This document shows positions 1,376-17,551 of a stretch of 64,000 nt of DNA, one piece after another. A program made the position numbers and the translations under genes. Below the pieces are notes generated by a model. It searched no databases. It was not told where the DNA came from and saw only the letters and a list, made by a program, of their open reading frames with translations. Each line of letters starts with the position of its first letter. Within the stretch, counting starts at the first letter, position 1. Source of the stretch: Thiobacillus sp. (GTDB lineage Bacteria; Pseudomonadota; Gammaproteobacteria; Burkholderiales; Thiobacillaceae); the NCBI RefSeq assembly GCF_030696885.1, contig NZ_JAUYRI010000017.1, positions 161,212 to 225,211 of the forward strand, given 5' to 3'.

Positions 1376-1828
1376 TCAGCCCAGCACCACCAATCCCCAT
1401 ATCACCACGACGTTGACGAGCGCGATCATCACCGCTGCGCTGCCCATGTCCTTGGCGCGCTTAATGAGCAGATGGTGCTCAAGCGAAATGCGATCGACTG
1501 CCGCCTCGACCGCGGAATTCAGCAGTTCGACGATCAATACCCCCAGCACCGCACCGATCATCAGCGCCCGCTCGATACCGGTTTCGCCGAGAAACAGCGC
1601 GAGTGGAATCAGCAACAGCGCGAGGAAGACTTCCTGGCGGAAGGCATCCTCAAAACGGAACGCCGCGGTCAGCCCGGCCCATGAATAGCCGGCGGCATTC
1701 AGCACACGCTGCAGACCGGTTTTGCCCTTGTACGGGCTTTCAGTCGGGGTGGGCGCGGCGTTTGCCCCCTGCCCCGCTGGCGCATCAGGCGAATTGGGGA
1801 GAGGGAGCGCAGCCTTGGGATCAGTCAT
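1376..1828 (-). CDS. dgkA: diacylglycerol kinase
   Basis: [45 protein letters not shown]. The likely start MTDPK at 1828 overlaps the gcvPB stop. Confidence 0.92.
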
Positions 1829-3276
1829 GCGGCGGGCTTGTACGCGAGGTCGAGTTCGCGCGCGGCCTTGACGTCGTCGAGGCGCCGCACCGGCAGGCTG
1901 TAAGGTGCGCCCTTGACCAGCTCGGGATTGGTTTCGGCTTCGTGCTTGATTCTGATCATCGCGTCGATGAAGCCGTCGAGCGTCTCGCGGCTCTCGGTTT
2001 CGGTCGGCTCGATCAGCAGGCACTCCGGCACCAGCAACGGAAAATAGGTGGTCGGCGCGTGGTAGCCGTAGTCGAGGAGGCGCTTGGCGAAGTCCATCGC
2101 GGAGACGCCGGTGGCGTCCTTCAGCTTCTTCAGCGTGACGATGAATTCGTGGCTGGCGCGGCGCGTCGGGTAGGCGAGGTCGAAGCCGGCGTCGCGCAGT
2201 TTTGCCATCAGGTAGTTGGCGTTGAGCGTGGCGTATTCGGCGACGCGCAGCATGCCCTCGCCACCCAGCAGGCGGGCGTAGATGTAGGCGCGCATCAGCA
2301 CGCCGGCGTTGCCCATGTTGGCGCTCATGCGGCCGATCGACTGCGGCAGGTCGGTCTCGGTCGCCAGCCGGTAGGCGCCGTTTTCATTCAGCACCAGCGG
2401 AATTGGCATGAAAGGCAGCAGCCGCGTCGACACCCCCACCGGACCCGCGCCCGGTCCGCCGCCGCCGTGCGGGGTGGAAAAGGTCTTGTGCAGGTTCATG
2501 TGGATGACGTCGAACCCCATGTCGCCGGGGCGCACCTTGCCGAGAATGGCGTTGAGGTTGGCGCCGTCGTAATACGACAGGCCGCCGGCGTCGTGGACGA
2601 TCTTCTGGATTTCGGAAATCGTCTTCTCGAACACGCCGAGCGTCGACGGGTTGGTCAGCATCAACCCGGCAGTCTGCGGACCGACTGCGGCCTTCAGCGC
2701 GTCGAGGTTGACCGCGCCGGTGGCGTCGGTCGGGATTTCCTTGACCGTGTAGCCGCACATGGTCGCGGTCGCCGGGTTGGTGCCGTGCGCCGCGTCCGGC
2801 ACGATGATCTCGCGCCGCGCGGTGTCGCCGCGCGCGTCGTGATAGGCACGGATCATCGCCACCCCGGCAAACTCGCCGTGCGCGCCCGCCATCGGCGCCA
2901 TCGACACGCCGGCCATGCCGGTCACGTCCTTCAGCATTTCCTGCAGCTCGAACATGCTGGCGAGGAAACCCTGTCCGGTCTCGTCCGGGCTCGCCGGATG
3001 GCGCGCCAGAAACTGCGGCAACATCGCCAGCGAATTGCATGCGCGCGGGTTGTACTTCATCGTGCACGAACCGAGCGGGTAGAACTGCGTGTCGATCGAG
3101 AAGTTCTTTTGGCTCAATCGCGTGTAGTGGCGCACCACATCGAGCTCGGAAACTTCCGGCAAGCCTGGTGCGTCCTTGCGGCACAGCGCGGCAGGCAAGT
3201 CATCGAGGTTGCCGCCGGCAGCGGGCAACTGGGCGGCAGCGGTGCGGCCGGGACGGGAATGGTCGAATATCAGCAT
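1825..3276 (-). CDS. gcvPB: glycine dehydrogenase (decarboxylating) subunit 2
   Basis: [11 protein letters not shown]; PLP-lysine motif [17 protein letters not shown]; LIEPTETES. Confidence 0.97.
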
Positions 3277-3283
3277 GGTTCGT

Positions 3284-3392
3284 AGGGGCTAGGAGTTAGG
3301 ATCTAGGGACTAGGGTTGTGGGGGCGGAGGAGATCGGGGGGCGCGGCGTAGCCGCTCATCCCCTAGCTCCTAGCCCCTAATTCCTAGCTCCT
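3284..3392. repeat. heptamer-arm hairpin element 1 (TAG type)
   Basis: Left arm AGGGGCT AGGAGTT AGGATCT AGGGACT AGGG; core GCGGC-GTA-GCCGC at 3343-3355; right arm CCCT AGCTCCT AGCCCCT AATTCCT AGCTCCT. Confidence 0.9.
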
Positions 3393-3883
3393 CAAAGCGC
3401 TGCCAGCGCGGCGTCGTAATTCGGCTCCTGCTTGATCTCGGGAACGAGTTCCGCGTGCAGCACCTTGTTGTTCTCATCGAGCACGACCACGGCGCGCGCG
3501 GTGATGCCGGCGAGCGGGCCGCTGGTGATGGCGACGCCGTAGTTCTTCATGAACTCGGCGCCGCCGCGCATGGTCGACAGTGTCACCACGTTGTTGGTGC
3601 CTTCGGCGCCGCAGAAGCGGCTCATCGCGAACGGCAGGTCGGCGGCGATGATCAGCACCACCGTGTTGCCGACTGCGGCGTCGTTGAATTTCTTGGTCGA
3701 GGTCGCGCACACCGGGGTATCCAGGCTGGGCACGATGTTGAGGATTTTCTTCTTGCCGGCGAAATCGGCCAGCGAGACGTCGGCCAGGTCCTTGTTGACC
3801 AGCTTGAAGTCGGGGGCGGTGTCGCCGACCTTGGGGAAGGTGCCGGACACGTCGATCGGGTTGCCTGCCAGAGTCACTGCCAT
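3392..3883 (-). CDS. tpx: thiol peroxidase (atypical 2-Cys peroxiredoxin)
   Basis: PSLDTPVCA peroxidatic motif; [14 protein letters not shown]; EPNYDAAL C-terminus. Confidence 0.95.
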
Positions 3884-3953
3884 GTTTGCTCTCCTTGAAT
3901 GAATCGGTCAAATGCCGGACGCGAACGATCGCGCCCGCTGCATTGCATACCTG

Positions 3954-4238
3954 CTAACTGTCTTGCTGATCATAGCGAGTCAGGTGCTCGTCGATATTCT
4001 CGCGCAACATTTTTTCGTACTGGTCCATGAAATAGGTGATTGCGGCTTCCTTCTCCACAATCAGCTGCGCCTTGTTCTCAGCGGCCGCCGCGATCACGAA
4101 GGCGTTGAAACGCGCTGCCGCAAACAGCGCAGCTGCACTCACCCGACTGGGTTTCTCCGCGTTCAGCTGGGTGTTGGCCAGTGCGATATACGCATCGGCC
4201 ATGTCATAGAACGGTTTGTCGCGCTGTACGTCGCTCAT
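3954..4238 (-). CDS. DUF3144-like small helical protein
   Basis: FYDMADAYIALANTQ...SAAALFAAARFNAF pattern; co-oriented inside the gcv operon. Confidence 0.7.
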   Translation of the reverse strand: MSDVQRDKPFYDMADAYIALANTQLNAEKPSRVSAAALFAAARFNAFVIAAAAENKAQLIVEKEAAITYFMDQYEKMLRENIDEHLTRYDQQDS

Positions 4239-4247
4239 TTGGGTTCC

Positions 4248-5624
4248 TTAACTCTTGTACGCGCACGGCGGCGCTTCACGGCGTTTGGACAGGATACGTT
4301 CCAATTGTTGCGCGTAGAGGTCAAGGTCCGCCGCGGTTTTGGTTTCGGTGACGCAGACGAGGATGGCCTGGCCGAGCTCGGGATACCAGCCGGAAATGTC
4401 CAGCCCGCCGAGGATGCCTTGCGCACGCAGCGCGCGCAGCACGTCTTTCGCGTTGTCGTTGAGTTTCAGCACGACTTCGTGGAAGAAGGGGCTGGCAAAC
4501 GCGCGCGTCACGCCCGGAATCGCGGCCAGCTTGTCAGCCAGGGCCACGGTGCCGCCATGGCTGGCGGAGGCCACCTTCGCCAAACCCTGCGGACCCAGCA
4601 GCGCCATGTATTGCGTCGCCGCGGTGACGACCAGGCCCTGGTTGGTGCAGATGTTCGAGGTGGCCTTGGAGCGGCGGATGTGCTGCTCGCGCGCCTGCAG
4701 CGTCAACGCGAAGCCGGGCTTGCCATCCAGATCAACCGTCCGCCCGACGATGCGGCCCGGCATCTGCCGCACGAAGTCCTGGCGGCAGCACATGAAGCCG
4801 AAATAGGGACCACCGGAGGCCATCGGCGCACCGAGCGGCTGGCCTTCGCCCACCGCGATGTCGGCACCGGTCTGCCCCCACTTGCCGGGCGCTTCCAGCA
4901 CCGCGAGCGTGGTCGGGTTCACCAGTGCGATCGCCAGCGCGCCTTTGTCATGCGCCCAGTCGGTCATCCCATGCACGTCTTCCAGCACGCCGAAGAAGTT
5001 GGGCTGCGGAATCACCAGGCCGGCGAAGCTGCCGGGGTCGGCCGGCAGCACCGTTTGACCCGTCGCAGCGTCATAGTCGAGCTCGACCAGTTCGATGCCC
5101 TGGTTCTTCACGGTCGTGTTGACCACGCGGCGGTAGATCGGGTGCACGCTCTTCGGCACCAGCACGCGGCGCGAGGTCTTGTGCGAACGCACCGCCATCA
5201 GCACCGCCTCGGCCAGCGCGGAGGCGCCGTCGTAGAGCGACGCATTCGACACGTCGAGCCCGGTCAGCCGCGTCATCATGGTCTGGTATTCGTAGATCAG
5301 CTGCAGCGTGCCTTGCGAGGCCTCGGCCTGATACGGCGTGTAGGCGGAATAGAACTCGCCGCGCGTGGTGATCTGCCAGATCGCCGCCGGGATGTGGTGC
5401 TCGTAGACGCCGGCGCCGATGAAGTTGGACCAGAAGCCGTCGGCCGACGCGCGTTCCTGCATCAGCCGCGTGACCGCCATTTCCGGAAGCCCAGCGGGCA
5501 CGTCCTTGAGTTTGCCCGTCTTCAGCGCGGGCGGGATTTCGTCGAACAGCGTCTCGATGCTGGCGGCGCCGATGGCGCCGAGCATGGCGGAGACGTCTGC
5601 TTCAGTGTGGGGAATGAAAGGCAT
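4248..5624 (-). CDS. gcvPA: glycine dehydrogenase (decarboxylating) subunit 1
   Basis: [16 protein letters not shown]; [13 protein letters not shown]; [18 protein letters not shown]. Confidence 0.97.
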
Positions 5625-5630
5625 TTGGGC

Positions 5631-5743
5631 AGGGGTCAGGATTCAGGGATCAGGATTCAGGGGGAGGATTCAGTGCCCGGTTTCAGGTATGGCGCGGCGC
5701 AGCCGCACAGTCCCTGATCCCTGGCCCCTGAATCCTGGCCCCT
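5631..5743. repeat. heptamer-arm hairpin element 2 (CAG type)
   Basis: AGGGGTC AGGATTC AGGGATC AGGATTC AGGG ... GCGGC-GCA-GCCGC (5694-5706) ... CCCT GATCCCT GGCCCCT GAATCCT GGCCCCT. Confidence 0.9.
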
Positions 5744-6132
5744 TAATGTGCTTCCGACTCGACCAGCTTCTGGTACGCAGCCGCGTCCAGCAGACCGGCG
5801 ACGTCGCCGGGGTTGGCCGGCTTCAGCTTGAACATCCACGCGCTGTAGGCGTCCTTGTTCACCGATTCGGGGCTGGCTTCGACGTCGTTGTTGGCGGCGA
5901 CGACTTCACCGGCGACGGGGGCGTAGACGTCGGACGCGGCTTTCACCGACTCGACCACCGCGCATTCCTCGCCCTTGGCGAGCGCGCGACCGGCGGCGGG
6001 GTTCTCGATGAACACCATGTCGCCGAGCAGGTCCTGCGCGTGGTGGGTGATGCCGATGGTCAACGTGCCGTCTGCTTCGACGCGCACCCATTCGTGGCTG
6101 GGGGTGTATTTGAGGTCTGCGGGGATGTTCAT
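5743..6132 (-). CDS. gcvH: glycine cleavage system H protein
   Basis: SHEWV; lipoyl-lysine motif [13 protein letters not shown]. Confidence 0.97.
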
Positions 6133-6141
6133 GCTTTCTCC

Positions 6142-6244
6142 AGGATCTAGGAATTAGGATCTAGAGGCTAGGGAAGGGGTGCCGAATCAGGAGCGCGGCG
6201 AAGCCGCACGTTCCCTAGATCCTAGCCCCTAGATCCTAGCCCCC
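6142..6244. repeat. heptamer-arm hairpin element 3 (TAG type)
   Basis: AGGATCT AGGAATT AGGATCT AGAGGCT AGGG ... GCGGC-GAA-GCCGC (6195-6207) ... CCCT AGATCCT AGCCCCT AGATCCT AGCCCCC. Confidence 0.9.
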
Positions 6245-6249
6245 CAAAA

Positions 6250-7335
6250 TTAAATCAAAACTTTACCGTTACGCACAAACGGATACTTCACTACCTTCGC
6301 GCGCAGTTTCTTGTCGCGAATCTCGACCTCAACCTCCGCGCCCGGCGCGATGCCGAGCGGGATGCGGGCGAGCGCGATCGATTGCTGCATCGTAGGCGAA
6401 AACGTGCCGGAGGTGATTTCGCCGTCGCCGTTTTTGGTGTGGACCGTCTGGTGACTGCGCAGCACGCCCTTGTCCAGCAGGATCAGGCCGGCGAGCTGTT
6501 TCGTCACTTCACTTTTTTCCAGCGCGGCGCGGCCGACGAAGTCGCGTTCGGTCTTCATATCCACCGTCCAGGCGAGGCCGGATTCCAGCGGGCTGGTCGT
6601 TTCGTCCATGTCCTGGCCGTAGAGGTTCATACCGGCTTCAAGGCGCAGGGTGTCGCGCGCGCCGAGGCCGATCGGCTTGCCGCCGGCTTCCATCAGCGCT
6701 TTCCAGAAGAAGGGCGCGGACTTTGCCAGCACCATCACTTCGTAGCCGTCTTCGCCGGTGTAGCCGGTGCGGGCAATGAACATCTCGCCCATGGCCGCGG
6801 CGTTGAAAGGCTTGAGACTGACGGTGATGCTGTCGACGCCGGGTAGCGCCTCGTTCAGTGCCTGCGTGGCATTCGGGCCCTGGATCGCGATCATCGCGAG
6901 GTCGCGGCGCGGGGTGAGCGTCAGGCCCATGCCCCAGTCGGCGTTCATTTTTTCCATCCACGCCAGGTCCTTTTCCGCGGTGCCGGCGTTGACCACCAGG
7001 CGGAACCAGTTCTCGTCCATGAAATAGATGATGAGGTCGTCGATGACGCCGCCGCCTTCGTTCAGCATGCAGGAATACAGCGCCTTGCCGGACACCTGCA
7101 GCTTGTCGACGTTGTTGGCCACCAGGCGGCGCAAAAATGCCCGCACGTTGGCGCCCTTGATGTCCAGCGGCAGCATGTGGGAGACGTCGAACAGGCCGCA
7201 GCCCGAACGCACCGTGTGGTGCTCTTCGATCTGCGAGCCGTAGTTGACCGGCATGTCCCAGCCGCCGAAATCGACCATCTTGGCGCCGAGTTCGCGGTGG
7301 GTGGCATTGAGCGGAGTGTGCTTGAGGTCGGACAT
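6250..7335 (-). CDS. gcvT: glycine cleavage system aminomethyltransferase T
   Basis: [13 protein letters not shown]; FDVSHM; RTGYTGEDG; [12 protein letters not shown]. Confidence 0.97.
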
Positions 7336-7343
7336 GGGGCACC

Positions 7344-7381
7344 AAAAATAAAAAAGGGTGAAGCGCGGATTCGCTTCACCC
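7344..7381 (-). terminator. intrinsic terminator-like hairpin in the gcvT leader (probable riboswitch expression platform)
   Basis: Minus strand GGGTGAAGCG-aatccg-CGCTTCACCC followed by TTTTTTATTTTT, directly 3' of aptamer 2. Confidence 0.75.
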
Positions 7382-7575
7382 CTCTGTCCTTGGTACCTGA
7401 GAGATTACAGCCGGCTGTTTGACCAGCGGGCCGCTGCCCCTTCGGTGGCGATCGAGAAGACCGCGCTCTCCAGAGTTTTTTCCAGGGATTGCCTGGGGGT
7501 TGCGGTCCTTTTGCCTGAGCGATTCCGGGTGAATTGCGCCTTCGGCGGCGTGTCTGGCACGCGCTCTCCCGCAAC
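7380..7575 (-). promoter_or_regulatory. tandem glycine riboswitch
   Basis: Two aptamers on the minus strand, each GGAGAG...CCGAAG...CTCAGG...AAGGAC. P1 stems are GTTGCG/CGCAAC and CTCTG/CAGAG. Sits upstream of gcvT. Confidence 0.95.
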
Positions 7576-7639
7576 GGGAGCCGGAACTATACCGAAGAAG
7601 CGAGCGCCCAGCCAGCCCCGTTCATCCGGCCGCGGGGAC

Positions 7640-8689
7640 TCAATACACCAGCTGCAAATCGAAGCCCATCGGCGTCAGATCCTGCACGGTCAGCGGCAGG
7701 CTCAAGGGCTGCTCGCTGCGCGGAGGGATGCCGGCGGCGATGCGCGGCGTATCGCCCAGGTATTCGCTGGGGGCGAAGCTGCGGCGTGCCAGCGCGCGGC
7801 TGCGCTGGTCGGTAAGCGTGAGCACCAGCACCGGCCAGGCCTGGGCCTGGCCGGCGCGGTTGCCGAGGGTCAGCGAGAGCACCAGGTTGCCGTTCGGCTC
7901 GATTTGCAGGTCGGAACCGATGATCTGCAGCTGCGCCAGCTTTTTCGGCAGCGAGAGCGTGCAGCCCAGTGCGGCGCAGGCCTGCTCCAGCGCGGGCCGG
8001 GTCTGTGGCCACTGGCTGACCAGGGTGTCGCGCAGGAAATAGGTGGCCTGCGCGGCCAGCATCAGCAGGAGCACCAGACTGGCCGCGACCCACAGCCCGG
8101 TGCGGGCCCGCCGCGACGTAGTCGGAATGAACGCGCTGCCCGGCACGGCGGGGCGCATCTGCGGTTGCGCGTATTCGACCTGCGCCATCACCGGCCGGGC
8201 CGGCGGCGTGGTTTCGGCCAGCGGCCCCGACCACTGGTGCGGCGGGTACACCGGCGGCATCGTGGATTGGCCCGGGATCTGCGGCAGCGGACCGGGATCG
8301 TCGTCGGCCGGTGGCTGGTCGGGGTCGATCAGGATGATCGACGACAGGTCGGGCGCAGCCTCGCGCTGGGTGATGCCGACGGGCGTCGCCGCTTCGGTGT
8401 CTGTTTCCGGCACCGCGTCGGCGGGCAGGGCATCAGCTGTTTCCTCGGCAACGGGCGCGAGCGGGGTGTCGACGACCGGCTCGGGCAGGGCCGCTTCGGC
8501 CTCGACCGGTGCAGGCAGGCTGGGCTCGGGCGGCGGCAGCGGCGAGCCATCTGCATACAATAGGCTGGGGCGGGCGTCGAACGCCGCGCCGCACACGCTG
8601 CACTGCACCCAGCCCTGCGCGGCGTCGAGCTGGTCCGCGCCGAGGCGGAACACGCTGACGCAGTGTGGACAGGTGGTGCGGTAGTTCAT
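7640..8689 (-). CDS. MJ0042-type zinc-ribbon + DUF3426 membrane protein
   Basis: N-terminal CPHC...VFR...QGWVQCSVC, Pro-rich linker, single TM helix, C-terminal domain with QAWPVLVLTLTD; in its usual position after prmA. Confidence 0.85.
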   Translation of the reverse strand: MNYRTTCPHCVSVFRLGADQLDAAQGWVQCSVCGAAFDARPSLLYADGSPLPPPEPSLPAPVEAEAALPEPVVDTPLAPVAEETADALPADAVPETDTEAATPVGITQREAAPDLSSIILIDPDQPPADDDPGPLPQIPGQSTMPPVYPPHQWSGPLAETTPPARPVMAQVEYAQPQMRPAVPGSAFIPTTSRRARTGLWVAASLVLLLMLAAQATYFLRDTLVSQWPQTRPALEQACAALGCTLSLPKKLAQLQIIGSDLQIEPNGNLVLSLTLGNRAGQAQAWPVLVLTLTDQRSRALARRSFAPSEYLGDTPRIAAGIPPRSEQPLSLPLTVQDLTPMGFDLQLVY

Positions 8690-9576
8690 CGCTTGACGCC
8701 CGCCAGGCGCACCCAGCCCTCGTCGAGTTCGGGCGGGTCGAAGTCAATGCTGTCACGGTAGACCGCCATCACATCGTCGGCCTGCTCGGCCAGAATGCCG
8801 GACAGCACCAGCTGGCCGCCGCACCGTACCCGGCCGGTCAGCAACGGCGCCATGCCCTTGAGCGGATTGGTGAGGATGTTGGCGACGACCAGGTCGTACT
8901 GGCCGGGCGCCAGTTCGCCCGGCAGGCAGAAGTGCGCCGGCACTTCATTCAGCGTGGCGTTGTCGTGCGAGGCGGTCACGGCTTGGTTGTCGATGTCGAC
9001 GCCGTCGACCCGCGCTGCGCCGAGCTTGGCGGCGGCAATGGCGAGAATGCCGGAGCCGCAGCCGTAGTCGAGCAGGGTTTCGCCGCCCTGCAGATGGGCG
9101 TCGAGCCATCGCAGGCACAGCCGCGTGGTGGGATGGCTGCCGGTACCGAAGGCGAGGCCGGGGTCGAGCTTGAGGTTGATTGCGTGCGGGTCGGGCGCGT
9201 TGTGCCAGGTCGGCACGATCCACAACCGCGGCGAGATCGGAATGGGGTCGAACTGCGACTGGGTCAGGCGCACCCAGTCCTGCTCTTCGACGGTTTCGAC
9301 CGTGTAGTCGGTGGGCACGGGGATGCCGGCGAGGTTTGCCGCGGCAGCCAGCGTTGCTGCCACGTCGGCTTCTGCGCTGAGCAGCGCGATCGCGATGCTG
9401 TGCGGCCACAATTCGGCCGTCGGGTGGTCGGGCTCGCCGAACAACGGCGTTTCATCGGCCGTACCGGCGTCGGCATCTTCCAGCGACACCGACAGCGCAC
9501 CGGCTTCCACCAGCGCGTCGGACAGCGGCTCAGCCTGCTTGGAATCGACGAGGATGCGGACGGATTGCCAGGGCAT
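8686..9576 (-). CDS. prmA: ribosomal protein L11 methyltransferase
   Basis: LDPGLAFGTGSHPTT; LDYGCGSGILAI; VANIL. Confidence 0.96.
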   Translation of the reverse strand: MPWQSVRILVDSKQAEPLSDALVEAGALSVSLEDADAGTADETPLFGEPDHPTAELWPHSIAIALLSAEADVAATLAAAANLAGIPVPTDYTVETVEEQDWVRLTQSQFDPIPISPRLWIVPTWHNAPDPHAINLKLDPGLAFGTGSHPTTRLCLRWLDAHLQGGETLLDYGCGSGILAIAAAKLGAARVDGVDIDNQAVTASHDNATLNEVPAHFCLPGELAPGQYDLVVANILTNPLKGMAPLLTGRVRCGGQLVLSGILAEQADDVMAVYRDSIDFDPPELDEGWVRLAGVKR

Positions 9577-9579
9577 GTC

Positions 9580-9701
9580 AGGGGTCAGGATTCAGGGGCT
9601 AGGGGTCAGGGGGTTTTGTGCGGCTGCGCCGCGGCTTCTTTGAACAAGACAAGGTGTGTCATGGTTTTTCCCTGACTCCTGAATCCTGGCCCCTGAATCC
9701 T
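9580..9701. repeat. heptamer-arm hairpin element 4 (CAG type, inverted core)
   Basis: AGGGGTC AGGATTC AGGGGCT AGGGGTC AGGG ... GCGGC-TGC-GCCGC (9620-9632) ... CCCT GACTCCT GAATCCT GGCCCCT GAATCCT; overlaps the accC stop codon. Confidence 0.9.
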
Positions 9702-11052
9702 AGCCAACCTTCTCCCCCGCCAGCTTGTGTTCCAGATAGTGAATGCTGGTGCCGCCGGCGATGAAAGCGGCGTCGTGCATCAGGTCCTGGTGCAGCGGGA
9801 TGTTGCTGTGGATGCCTTCGACCACCATTTCCATCAGTGCACCGCGCATGCGGGCGATGGCCTGGTCGCGGGTGTCGCCGTAGGCGATCACCTTGCCGAT
9901 CATCGAATCGTAATGGGGTGGCACGTAATAGCCGTGGTAGACGTGCGAATCGACGCGGATGCCGGGGCCGCCCGCAGCGTGGTAGTTGGTGAGCTTGCCG
10001 GGGCTGGGCACGAAGGTGGACGGATGCTCTGCGTTGATGCGGCACTCGATGGCATGGCCGCGGAAGCGGATGTCCTTTTGCTTCCAGGGTAGTTTTTCGC
10101 CGGCAGCAACGCGGATTTGCGTCTGCACAATGTCGATGCCGGTGATGAGTTCGGTCACCGGGTGCTCGACCTGCACGCGGGTGTTCATCTCGATGAAATA
10201 GAACTCGCCGTTCTCATACAGGAACTCGAAGGTGCCGGCGCCGCGGTAGCCGATCTTGCGGCAGGCTTCGGCACAGCGTTCGCCGATCTTGTCGCGCAGC
10301 TTGGGGTCAAGTCCGGGTGCGGGCGCTTCTTCCAGCACTTTCTGGTGGCGGCGTTGCATCGAGCAGTCGCGCTCGCCCAGGTGCACCGCGTTGCCGTGCT
10401 CGTCGGCGAGGATCTGGATTTCGATGTGGCGGGGCGTCTGCAGGAATTTTTCCATGTAGACCATCGGGTTGCCGAAGGCTGCCCCGGCTTCGGTCTTGGT
10501 CATGGTCACCGCGTTCAGCAGTGCGGCCTCGGTGTGCACCACGCGCATGCCGCGTCCGCCGCCGCCGCCGGCGGCCTTGATGATGACCGGGTAGCCGACG
10601 TGGTTGGCGGTTTTGATGATTTCCGCGGGGTCGTCCGACAGTGCACCCTCGGAGCCGGGCACGCACGGCACGCGGGCTTCGAGCATCGCGTGCTTGGCGG
10701 CAACCTTGTCGCCCATCAGGCGGATGTTGTCGGGGCGCGGGCCGATGAAGGTGAAGCCGGACGACTCCACGCGCTCGGCAAAGTCGGCGTTTTCCGACAG
10801 GAAGCCGTAGCCGGGGTGGATGGCTTCGGCGTCGGTGACTTCGGCGGCGGCGATGATCGACGGCACATGCAGATAGCTTTGCGCCGACGGCGCCGGGCCG
10901 ATGCACACCGATTCGTCGGCCAGCTTGACGTACTTGGCGTCGCGGTCGGCCTCGGAATAGACGGCGACGGTCTTGATGCCCATTTCGCGGCAGGCGCGCT
11001 GGATCCTCAAGGCGATTTCGCCGCGGTTGGCGATCAGGATTTTTTCAAACAT
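9700..11052 (-). CDS. accC: acetyl-CoA carboxylase, biotin carboxylase subunit
   Basis: [13 protein letters not shown]; [11 protein letters not shown]; [12 protein letters not shown]; [10 protein letters not shown]. Confidence 0.98.
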
Positions 11053-11060
11053 GGTTTTTG

Positions 11061-11170
11061 AGGGGTCAGGGGTCAGGATTCAGGATTCAGGGGATGAGCG
11101 GCTTTGCCACGTCATTTGAATAAGGCGCAAAGCACCTCCCCTGATCCCTGGCCCCTGATCCCTGACTCCT
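11061..11170. repeat. heptamer-arm hairpin element 5 (CAG type, inverted core)
   Basis: AGGGGTC AGGGGTC AGGATTC AGGATTC AGGG ... GCGGC-TTT-GCCAC (11098-11110) ... CCCT GATCCCT GGCCCCT GATCCCT GACTCCT. Confidence 0.9.
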
Positions 11171-11173
11171 TCC

Positions 11174-11623
11174 TCAGGCAATCACAAACAAGGGCTCGCC
11201 GTACTCAACCGGCTGGCCGTTTTCAACCAGGATGGCCTTGATGACGCCGCCCTGATCCGATTCGATTTCGTTCAGCAGCTTCATCGCTTCGATGATGCAT
11301 ATCGTGTCGCCGGCATTCACGCTCTGGCCGACTTCGGCAAAGTTCTTCGAGCCTGGCGCCGGCGCGCGGTAGAAGGTGCCGACCATCGGCGAACGCACGA
11401 CGTGGCCTTCGGGCATGGCGTCTTCCGCCGGAAGGGCAGCCACCGGTGCTGCAGCTGCCGGGGCGGGCGCATGCATCATCTGCGGGGCGTGGTGCATCAT
11501 CATCTGCGCACCGGCAATGCTCTTGGCGATGCGGACCTTTTCTTCGCCTTCGGTGATTTCCAGCTCGGCGATGCCGGAGGCTTCGACCAGGTCAATGAGC
11601 TTTTTCAGTTTTCTGAGATCCAT
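11174..11623 (-). CDS. accB: acetyl-CoA carboxylase biotin carboxyl carrier protein
   Basis: [12 protein letters not shown]; SPMVGTFY; biotinylation motif EAMKL. Confidence 0.97.
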
Positions 11624-17445: not shown

Positions 17446-17551
17446 AATAAAAAAGCCCCGACCAAGGGAGGGATCGGGGCTAAAAATGCCTTAAGGGGAT
17501 TAAGGCATCCCGCTCAGGGAGGAGAAGCGGGAGACGATGCAAAGATCGTCT
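17446..17551 (-). ncRNA. putative small RNA, anti-hemB-motif-like (four abutting hairpins, last one a terminator)
   Basis: Four stems: AGACGAT/ATCGTCT, CCCGCT/AGCGGG, ATGCCTTA/TAAGGCAT, AGCCCCGA/TCGGGGCT followed by TTTTTATT on the minus strand. Lies antisense to, and upstream of, hemB. Confidence 0.7.

Follow-up and report, generated by a model that had tools for sequence, protein, structure and literature searches.

A stretch of 64,000 nt from a Thiobacillus sp. (hereafter the window; C17:161212-225211 of a draft genome of 3.0 Mb and 64% G+C, labelled G000) carries five hairpins with arms of tandem heptamers, all of them between the genes of two operons. What such hairpins are, and what keeps them in the genome, is the question raised by this locus. 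A sequence-only reading had proposed either a non-autonomous mobile family resembling repetitive extragenic palindromic (REP) sequences or a selected mRNA structure, and had suggested that similar heptamer stems flank four-helix-bundle (4HB) genes. The five elements exist where that reading had placed them, each with four AGG heptamers followed by AGGG, a spacer of 39-58 nt, and CCCT followed by complementary heptamers; within the spacer lies a GC mini-hairpin, here called the core. The evidence given below leans towards the view that the hairpins are gene-less, non-autonomous copies whose spread or upkeep depends on a 4HB protein with matching arms, and that an orphan population is left in the present genome after loss of its gene with YAGG-type arms. 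The reading as a non-autonomous, REP-like family comes from comparison of copies and not from observed movement; it is supported by a conserved core that is almost confined to the neighbourhood of the arms, by the occurrence of one element at non-orthologous sites in sister genomes and by the tracking of the 4HB gene.

Four-helix-bundle genes and hairpin populations in Thiobacillus

The 4HB proteins in question belong to PF05635, the family of the 'intervening sequence (IVS) proteins', relatives of the diversity-generating retroelement (DGR) protein Avd. G000 encodes a single member (C19:62184-62489), flanked by heptamer arms of the CAAG type and related to PDB entries 2GSC and 2RLD, both uncharacterised. 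No YAGG-armed 4HB gene was found in this genome, and for this reason its YAGG hairpins are read as an orphan, non-autonomous population. In other Thiobacillus genomes, the very CAGG arms seen in the window surround a 4HB open reading frame (ORF) of ~123 aa, with its start at the inner end of the AGG arm and its stop at a TGA within the CCT arm. At the junction between the E1beta and E2 genes of the pyruvate dehydrogenase operon (E1beta|E2), 10 of 29 species have a CAGG-armed 4HB cassette and 5 a TAGG-armed one. The suggested flanking of 4HB genes by heptamer stems is therefore confirmed, both for the CAAG-armed gene of G000 and for these 15 sister species, and longer copies with such a gene between the same arms, as the sequence-only reading had envisaged, do occur. 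The remaining 14 species have gene-less hairpins at E1beta|E2, of the GAAGGGG type (G000 and its sister G072), the GTAAGGC type, or a CGCGAAG type with a period of 9-10. At the adjacent E1alpha|E1beta junction most species have nothing but a plain spacer of 25 nt; in three species (L180, L181, L185) it is occupied by a different insert of 105-156 nt with arms of the CCCTCTCCC/GGGAGAGGG type.

Across the genus, 57 PF05635 genes are present in 40 of 61 genomes, and the ORF is intact in all 57. Each protein subfamily has its own arm heptamer, of which there are 8 or more types. All relatives that are at least 85% identical to the CAGG-type protein have CAGG arms, and one of these lies in a gammaproteobacterial metagenome-assembled genome (MAG) from which five gene-less CAGG loci were recovered as well. 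TAGG arms are found in the group at 64-66% identity, and many other heptamers in relatives further removed. As a separate case, arms of the CTAACGA/CTAATGA type are common to the 4HB genes of five hosts (L302, L315, L317, L339, L362), among Nitrosomonadales, Gallionella, Burkholderiales and Gammaproteobacteria MAGs, and there too the arm type travels with the protein subfamily.

The type and number of gene-less hairpins follow the resident gene. In the 61 genomes, the median number of YAGG windows (windows here of the arm pattern) is 94 where a YAGG-armed 4HB gene is present (n=19) vs 6.5 where it is not (n=42; Mann-Whitney p = 2e-8). The pure-CAGG fraction of these windows is 0.38-0.93 in the 12 genomes with a CAGG-armed gene and 0.04-0.19 in the 7 with a TAGG-armed gene, without overlap (p = 4e-5). 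Shared ancestry was taken into account with a tree of E1alpha-E1beta DNA, which offers seven independent pairs: the count follows the gene in 6-7 of them and runs opposite to it in none (p ~0.016-0.03). A second tree, of the unlinked gcvT-H-PA genes and covering a partly different genome set, has the count going with the gene in 5-6 of 6 pairs and again never opposite. Loss of the gene in sister pairs is accompanied by a 10- to 50-fold lower count. A GAAGGGG-armed 4HB gene is found in G072 only, and that genome has 38 GAAGGGG arrays, the highest number among the 61, 47 of which have none. In G058 and G065 the relevant junction falls at a contig end, where the state of the gene is unreadable.

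Turnover at fixed operon junctions

Hairpins change in type at sites that stay in place. Both junctions of the glycine-cleavage (gcv) operon carry a hairpin in all 30 species examined, its flavour varying by species, and are never empty; at E1beta|E2, likewise, some hairpin is present in every species examined and never an empty gap. A second hairpin family, with CGCGAAG-containing units and a period of 9-10, occupies the same junctions in other Thiobacillus species (gcv: L132, L143-L145, L150; E1beta|E2: L160, L163, L168, L173, L175, L178, L181).

The process can be followed between G000 and G072, which were compared at 33 element sites with flanks ~95% identical; 31 of the sites were found in G072. 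About 9 hold the same element and ~21 a different one, the changed sites having either a YAGG element of the other type (~12) or GAAGGGG-type hairpins (~10). One site is empty and another is occupied by the 4HB cassette with GAAGGGG arms. The core at the same site is the best match as long as the type has not changed; after a change of type, the core is usually closer to a copy at another site. For example, the site-8 element of G072 equals the site-32 element of G000, and the gcvH|gcvPA element of G072 resembles element 3 of the window. Since the cores of switched sites match elsewhere, whole elements appear to have been replaced by copies of others, the sites themselves staying in place. Rewriting of the arms in situ with retention of the core was rejected on the same grounds.

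As to empty junctions in sister strains, the comparison with G072 provides a single filled/empty pair, at this one site (C17:94373-94512; murC junction, site 13). The empty site reads CTGGCGAAATGAAGC and the filled one CTGGC[TGAGGGG...GCGAACC]ATGAAGC. A recent insertion specific to G000 was considered and rejected, as the element is common to G070 and G019; the junction is an ATGA stop/start overlap, and thus empty, in ~35 of 57 genomes. The CAGG element at this site (also L275 in G070 and L280 in G019) contains a conserved mini-ORF of ~45 codons, which begins in an ATGA overlap with the upstream ORF, itself extended, continues across the CCT arm, and terminates in an ATGA overlap with the downstream start codon. 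A different arrangement was seen at the start of a murC-like gene in six genomes (L274 in G012, L279 in G065, L280 in G019, L281 in G047, L277 in G068, L278 in G054): its first ~40 nt (ATGAAGCACGCCGTCAA...) are duplicated around a conserved insert of ~100 nt (GGTCGATCCGAGCAGGGAGCAGGG...), which yields a short upstream ORF sharing the N-terminus. This is not a heptamer element.

The sequence-only reading had also described the two arms as covarying, and this holds for arm type only. Within elements, the paired heptamers are T:A in 68 cases, C:G in 34, C:A in 13 and T:G in 12, so TAG-type left arms go with CTA-type right arms, and CAG with CTG; pairing at this Y:R position is 0.85 within an element vs 0.57 between elements. 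At the variable positions the corresponding values are 0.54 and 0.56, register shifts of 7 included. Complementarity specific to the element was therefore rejected, own arms pairing no better than arms taken from other copies, and seven apparently compensatory pairs in an alignment of 14 elements from orthologous sites all derive from the same four TAGG-type sequences. The arms are thus drawn independently of each other from a vocabulary of self-complementary heptamers of one type, and are not mirror copies.

Several observations weigh against a dependence on the 4HB protein. The assemblies are drafts, and the association may stem from co-expansion without causation. YAGG windows are numerous in three genomes without a YAGG-armed 4HB gene (99 in G000, 53 in G072, 59 in G019), and replacement of one YAGG element by another continued after the split of G000 and G072, so that persistence, and perhaps turnover, needs no resident cognate gene. 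At C17:94373-94512 no target-site duplication is visible in the single filled/empty pair, and since identity of the G072 flank drops to 82% at this site, part of the pattern is explained by homologous recombination exchanging alleles. Derivation of the gene-less elements from 4HB cassettes by internal deletion was unsupported, because the cassette ORF spans from arm to arm and the gene-less cores have, by eye, no recognisable remnant of it. Finally, we know of no nuclease or recombinase activity and no catalytic fold for PF05635. Most of these points, together with the unspecific pairing of the arms, are what a selfish or neutral repeat family would show if it spread and swapped copies by host processes alone (such as template switching between hairpins at stalled forks, or homologous recombination between strains), with the 4HB gene as cargo expanding alongside it. 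Such a family seems unlikely nevertheless, as the type of a single cassette predicts that of dozens of unlinked hairpins without overlap, GAAGGGG in G072 included, as loss of the gene goes with a collapse of the count in sister pairs, and as no decayed 4HB ORF is found among the 57 copies.

Operon placement, folding and core of the hairpins

The five hairpins in the window (Table 1) lie between genes that are all on the minus strand, in the accBC-prmA and gcv operons, and each occupies the entire stop-to-start gap between its neighbours. In order of transcription, the first operon reads accB, element 5, accC, element 4, prmA and a zinc-finger protein, and the second reads two glycine riboswitch aptamers, gcvT, element 3, gcvH, element 2, gcvPA, tpx, element 1 and gcvPB; the thiol peroxidase gene tpx lies between gcvPA and gcvPB in the glycine-cleavage operon. 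On either strand, the 5' arm of every element consists of four to five YAGGRNN units closing in YAGGG, and is followed by the mini-hairpin in the spacer (45, 49, 39, 58 and 46 nt in elements 1-5), and a 3' arm of CCCTR plus NNYCCTR units. The fixed architecture claimed for them holds overall, with two exceptions: the fourth unit of element 3 is AGAGGCT, and the mini-hairpin of element 5 is imperfect (GCGGC-TTT-GCCAC). The inversion of the core in elements 4 and 5, which had also been noted, is borne out by the core strands.

Table 1. Hairpin elements and RNA features of the window, in window coordinates.
Feature	Coordinates	Type or strand	Context or sequence
Element 1	3283..3392	TAGG type	between tpx (3392-3883, -) and gcvPB (1825-3276, -)
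Element 1 arms	AGG arm 3283-3315; CCT arm 3361-3386		degenerate unit of CCT arm reaching 3392
Element 1 core	3341..3360	-	GATGAGCGGC-TAC-GCCGCGC, 2 nt inside minus-strand AGG arm
Element 2	5630..5743	CAGG type	between gcvH (5743-6132, -) and gcvPA (4248-5624, -)
Element 2 arms	AGG arm 5630-5662; CCT arm 5712-5737 (up to 5743)
Element 2 core	5692..5711	-	ACTGTGCGGC-TGC-GCCGCGC on minus strand
Element 3	6141..6244 (CCT arm to 6238/6244)	TAGG type	between gcvT (6250-7335, -) and gcvH
Element 3 core	6193..6212	-	AACGTGCGGC-TTC-GCCGCGC on minus strand; homologous to element 2 core
Element 4	9579..9702	mainly CAGG type	between accC (9700-11052, -) and prmA (8686-9576, -)
Element 4 core	9617..9634	+	TGTGCGGC-TGC-GCCGCGG; inverted relative to elements 1-3
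Element 5	11061..11170 (arms 11067(11061)-11164(11170))	CAGG type	between accB (11174-11623, -) and accC
Element 5 core	11095..11112	+	TGAGCGGC-TTT-GCCACGT; stem imperfect
Tandem glycine riboswitch aptamers	7374-7581	-	5' of gcvT
anti-hemB (Burkholderia RNA 7) small RNA, Rfam	17447-17534	-	74 bits; gathering score 49.5

The stems of the five elements span 26-33 positions. Their predicted RNA folds have energies of -52 to -68 kcal/mol; z-scores range from -3.8 to -7.5, and not one of 200 shuffled versions is as stable. At the gathering score, Rfam returned only the glycine riboswitch and anti-hemB in the window; the hairpins appeared as sub-threshold look-alikes of miRNA precursors and belong to no family there. 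A Shine-Dalgarno sequence (GGAG) remains between arm and start codon in element 3, the sole case among the five.

The sequence-only reading had found the elements confined to 8 kb. The remaining 53 kb of the window indeed contain none, but members of the family are spread over the whole genome. The pattern of three YAGGRNN units plus YAGGG has 99 matches there; reversed, it has none, so the matches are not due to chance. A scan for period-7 chains, by which copies were counted, gave 33 paired elements with arms of 3-5 units, in addition to ~20 arms that are solo or form long arrays; a generic period-7 autocorrelation scan, which is too strict, added only a few CAAG- and GAAGGG-type hairpins. 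The five copies within 8 kb and three more located 16 kb upstream (C17:145302-147879) form a marked cluster against an average density of ~1 per 90 kb. All 33 paired copies are intergenic, 31 of them between co-directional genes, and every convergent pair has the same polarity, AGG arm 5' and CCT arm 3'. The stop codon of the upstream gene lies 0-12 nt from the 5' arm, and the next start codon mostly 2-30 nt past the 3' arm. Stop codons in all three frames are found within the 3' arm of 21 of 31 copies, and a Shine-Dalgarno-like motif is retained before the start codon in only 8 of 31. Long pure heptamer arrays occur at C23:5-128 (18 x CAGGGGT), C31:2094-2154, C31:275567-275620 and C18:8-40; several of these are at contig ends, and the repeats appear to break the assembly.

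This placement would also suit mRNA stem-loops selected by the host between cistrons, for RNase III processing or stabilisation or for translational coupling, the sequence drifting while the hairpin persists. The gcv and E1beta|E2 junctions, occupied in every species examined, the filled stop-to-start gaps with their few remaining Shine-Dalgarno-like motifs, and the mini-ORF that chains both genes at the murC junction through ATGA overlaps are all in keeping with it; RNase III cleaves the analogous stems of rRNA intervening sequences (PMC4990558), and stem-loops that set operon stoichiometry are known (PMC4423207). In 31 elements there is no bias towards the transcribed strand: G:U pairs are not in excess on the sense strand (84 sense, 140 antisense), nor is folding better there (13 elements fold better in sense vs 18 in antisense). 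The strand comparison was on this basis rejected as evidence for selection on the RNA, and the selected mRNA structure first suggested is left unsupported. Moreover, the core occurs in both orientations relative to the host genes (16 sense, 9 antisense), the E1alpha|E1beta gap functions with its plain spacer in most species, the murC junction is empty in most genomes, and the same arms and core are found in unrelated phyla. Taken together, this explanation is rather improbable, and somewhat more so than spread by host processes.

Far less probable is a role as G-quadruplex (G4) forming heptamer repeats of the Xanthomonas/Nostoc kind, acting through G4 or i-motif structures. The habits are those described for such repeats (PMC4692102), namely G-rich heptamers, a preference for four units, position between aligned ORFs and convergent pairs, and G4 formation would be expected of arrays like (CAGGGGT)n at C23:5-128. 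However, the canonical motif (four G3+ tracts with loops of 1-7 nt) is present in the 5' arm of only 4 of 31 copies, typical arms alternating GGGG and GGA units, and the CAAG and CGCGAAG arms found at the same sites are not G4 formers.

The core bears on common descent. Its motif, TG[A/T]GCGGC-N3-5-GCCGCGC, stands 2 nt inward from the AGG arm on whichever strand has it in forward orientation; inverted cores, one per end, are present in some elements, and one of the two is often lost. Exact cores are nearly restricted to the vicinity of YAGG arms (10 of 15 unique matches). Arms with an identical 19-mer are found in several other phyla as well, and a similar core (GGAGCGGCTTCGCCGC) recurs with the same arms at loci of Planctomycetota and Gammaproteobacteria. 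Shared internal sequence of this kind points to common descent of the copies, since independent slippage would not yield it. Origin of the repeats site by site through slippage, to which variation in unit number among orthologous copies and arrays of 9-18 units might otherwise point, can be dismissed for practical purposes, given the specific core of 18-20 nt accompanying the arms, identical composite elements at different sites, the invariant polarity and the absence of backward matches.

Relation to known repeats and intervening sequences

Among the close counterparts are the ORF-bearing intervening sequences of 23S rRNA in Leptospira and Coxiella. They share the long inverted-repeat heptamer stem, insertion into transcribed DNA, and, in gene-bearing relatives of the present hairpins, a PF05635/S23p ORF between the arms. 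The S23p IVS of Coxiella burnetii has GACAGAT heptamers in a 28-bp stem and its excision by RNase III has been shown (PMC4990558). IVSs, however, are inserted in helices of the 23S (or 16S) rRNA and excised by RNase III, whereas the five elements described here all lie between protein-coding genes and contain no ORF.

In organisation, the hairpins resemble REP sequences and their hairpin-forming doublets (REPINs) with the associated REP-associated tyrosine transposase (RAYT): inverted hairpin modules, here cores occurring singly or in inverted pairs, form dispersed, intergenic, imperfect palindromes in many copies, tied to a repeat-flanked single-copy gene and left as orphans after its loss. 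They differ in having tandem-heptamer arms, no GTAG-type REP, and a partner without a known catalytic fold. A RAYT gene, which had been suggested as a possible partner, was not found: G000 has no match to the Y1 HUH transposase family PF01797 at E <= 0.01, a search that was positive in 6 of 14 reference genomes used as control. Nor do the elements resemble MITEs, the miniature transposable elements with inverted repeats, in the sense of sharing their ends with a transposase, as gene-bearing relatives encode only the ~123-aa PF05635 four-helix bundle.

Among heptamer repeats, the GGGNATC repeats of Xanthomonas and Nostoc (Rehm et al. 2015, PMC4692102), read as G-quadruplex formers and with 70-75 convergent pairs per genome capable of forming stem-loops, are similar in their G-rich 7-nt units, four-unit preference, position near the stop and start codons of aligned ORFs, convergent pairs and lack of a link to known transposons. 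No core or 4HB gene was reported for them, whereas the present elements have a mini-hairpin core, track PF05635 genes, and mostly have arms without a canonical G4. The TAACTGA heptamers of Beggiatoaceae, cyanobacteria and Bacteroidetes (MacGregor 2015, PMC4679880) also form intergenic arrays (2-6 units) that reach to within a few nt of start codons, in most cases with no ribosome-binding site, supply stop codons in three frames, and are patchily distributed across phyla; they are direct repeats, with one inverted case, and have no hairpin partner arm or core. In Geobacter metallireducens, heptanucleotide elements (GGACCGG, and MTYCTGA drawn as hairpins) were described as putative regulatory sites (Aklujkar et al. 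2009, PMC2700814). These have four to five tandem units and dozens of copies, located both between and within genes, and were described without comparative or gene-association analysis.

The resemblance to the short tandemly repeated repetitive (STRR) sequences of cyanobacteria, to which the heptamers had been likened, concerns the period of the repeats. In the literature searched, no paper was found that ties gene-less heptamer hairpins to PF05635 genes.

These observations can be drawn together. The half-element is a 5' array of three to five YAGGRNN units closing in YAGGG, followed after 2 nt by the GC mini-hairpin; two half-elements in inverted order make a hairpin, and a PF05635 cassette between the same arms is the gene-bearing form, built on the design of ORF-bearing 23S rRNA intervening sequences. 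At fixed stop-to-start junctions the resident copy is replaced by a copy of another. The 4HB protein may read the heptamers and drive this copying, by analogy with REPINs and RAYT. In the transcript, RNase III would presumably cut the stem of 26-33 positions as it does in rRNA intervening sequences (PMC4990558). The stem brings the upstream stop and downstream start codons together, and this may be the reason that genes can do without the lost Shine-Dalgarno sequence. Extended to the protein family as a whole, PF05635 proteins might be sequence-specific partners of heptamer hairpins, each subfamily with its own 7-nt unit, which promote a copying that overwrites resident hairpins, so that hairpin populations follow the gene and decay after its loss. 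This wider proposal is put forward tentatively, and is the more doubtful of the two.

Two long-standing puzzles meet here. Bacterial genomes have an excess of 7-nt tandem repeats that has long been noted and is unexplained, and the PF05635 'intervening-sequence' proteins have, to our knowledge, been without an assigned function for ~30 years. Within this genus, a resident 4HB gene predicts both the number of hairpins and their repeat type, which provides a quantitative link between the two; should it hold up, this type-specific association at the level of the genus would be the most consequential result. It turns a vague resemblance into testable claims, namely binding specificity of the protein for its heptamer, copying that depends on the gene, and processing of operon transcripts by RNase III. 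The elements also matter for annotation: with their arms come stop codons, the loss of Shine-Dalgarno sequences and breaks in assemblies, and ORFs next to them can be lengthened or cut short. If true, the wider proposal would describe a gene-plus-repeat system like that of REPINs and RAYT, without a known nuclease, and would unite rRNA intervening sequences, the excess of heptamer repeats and PF05635.

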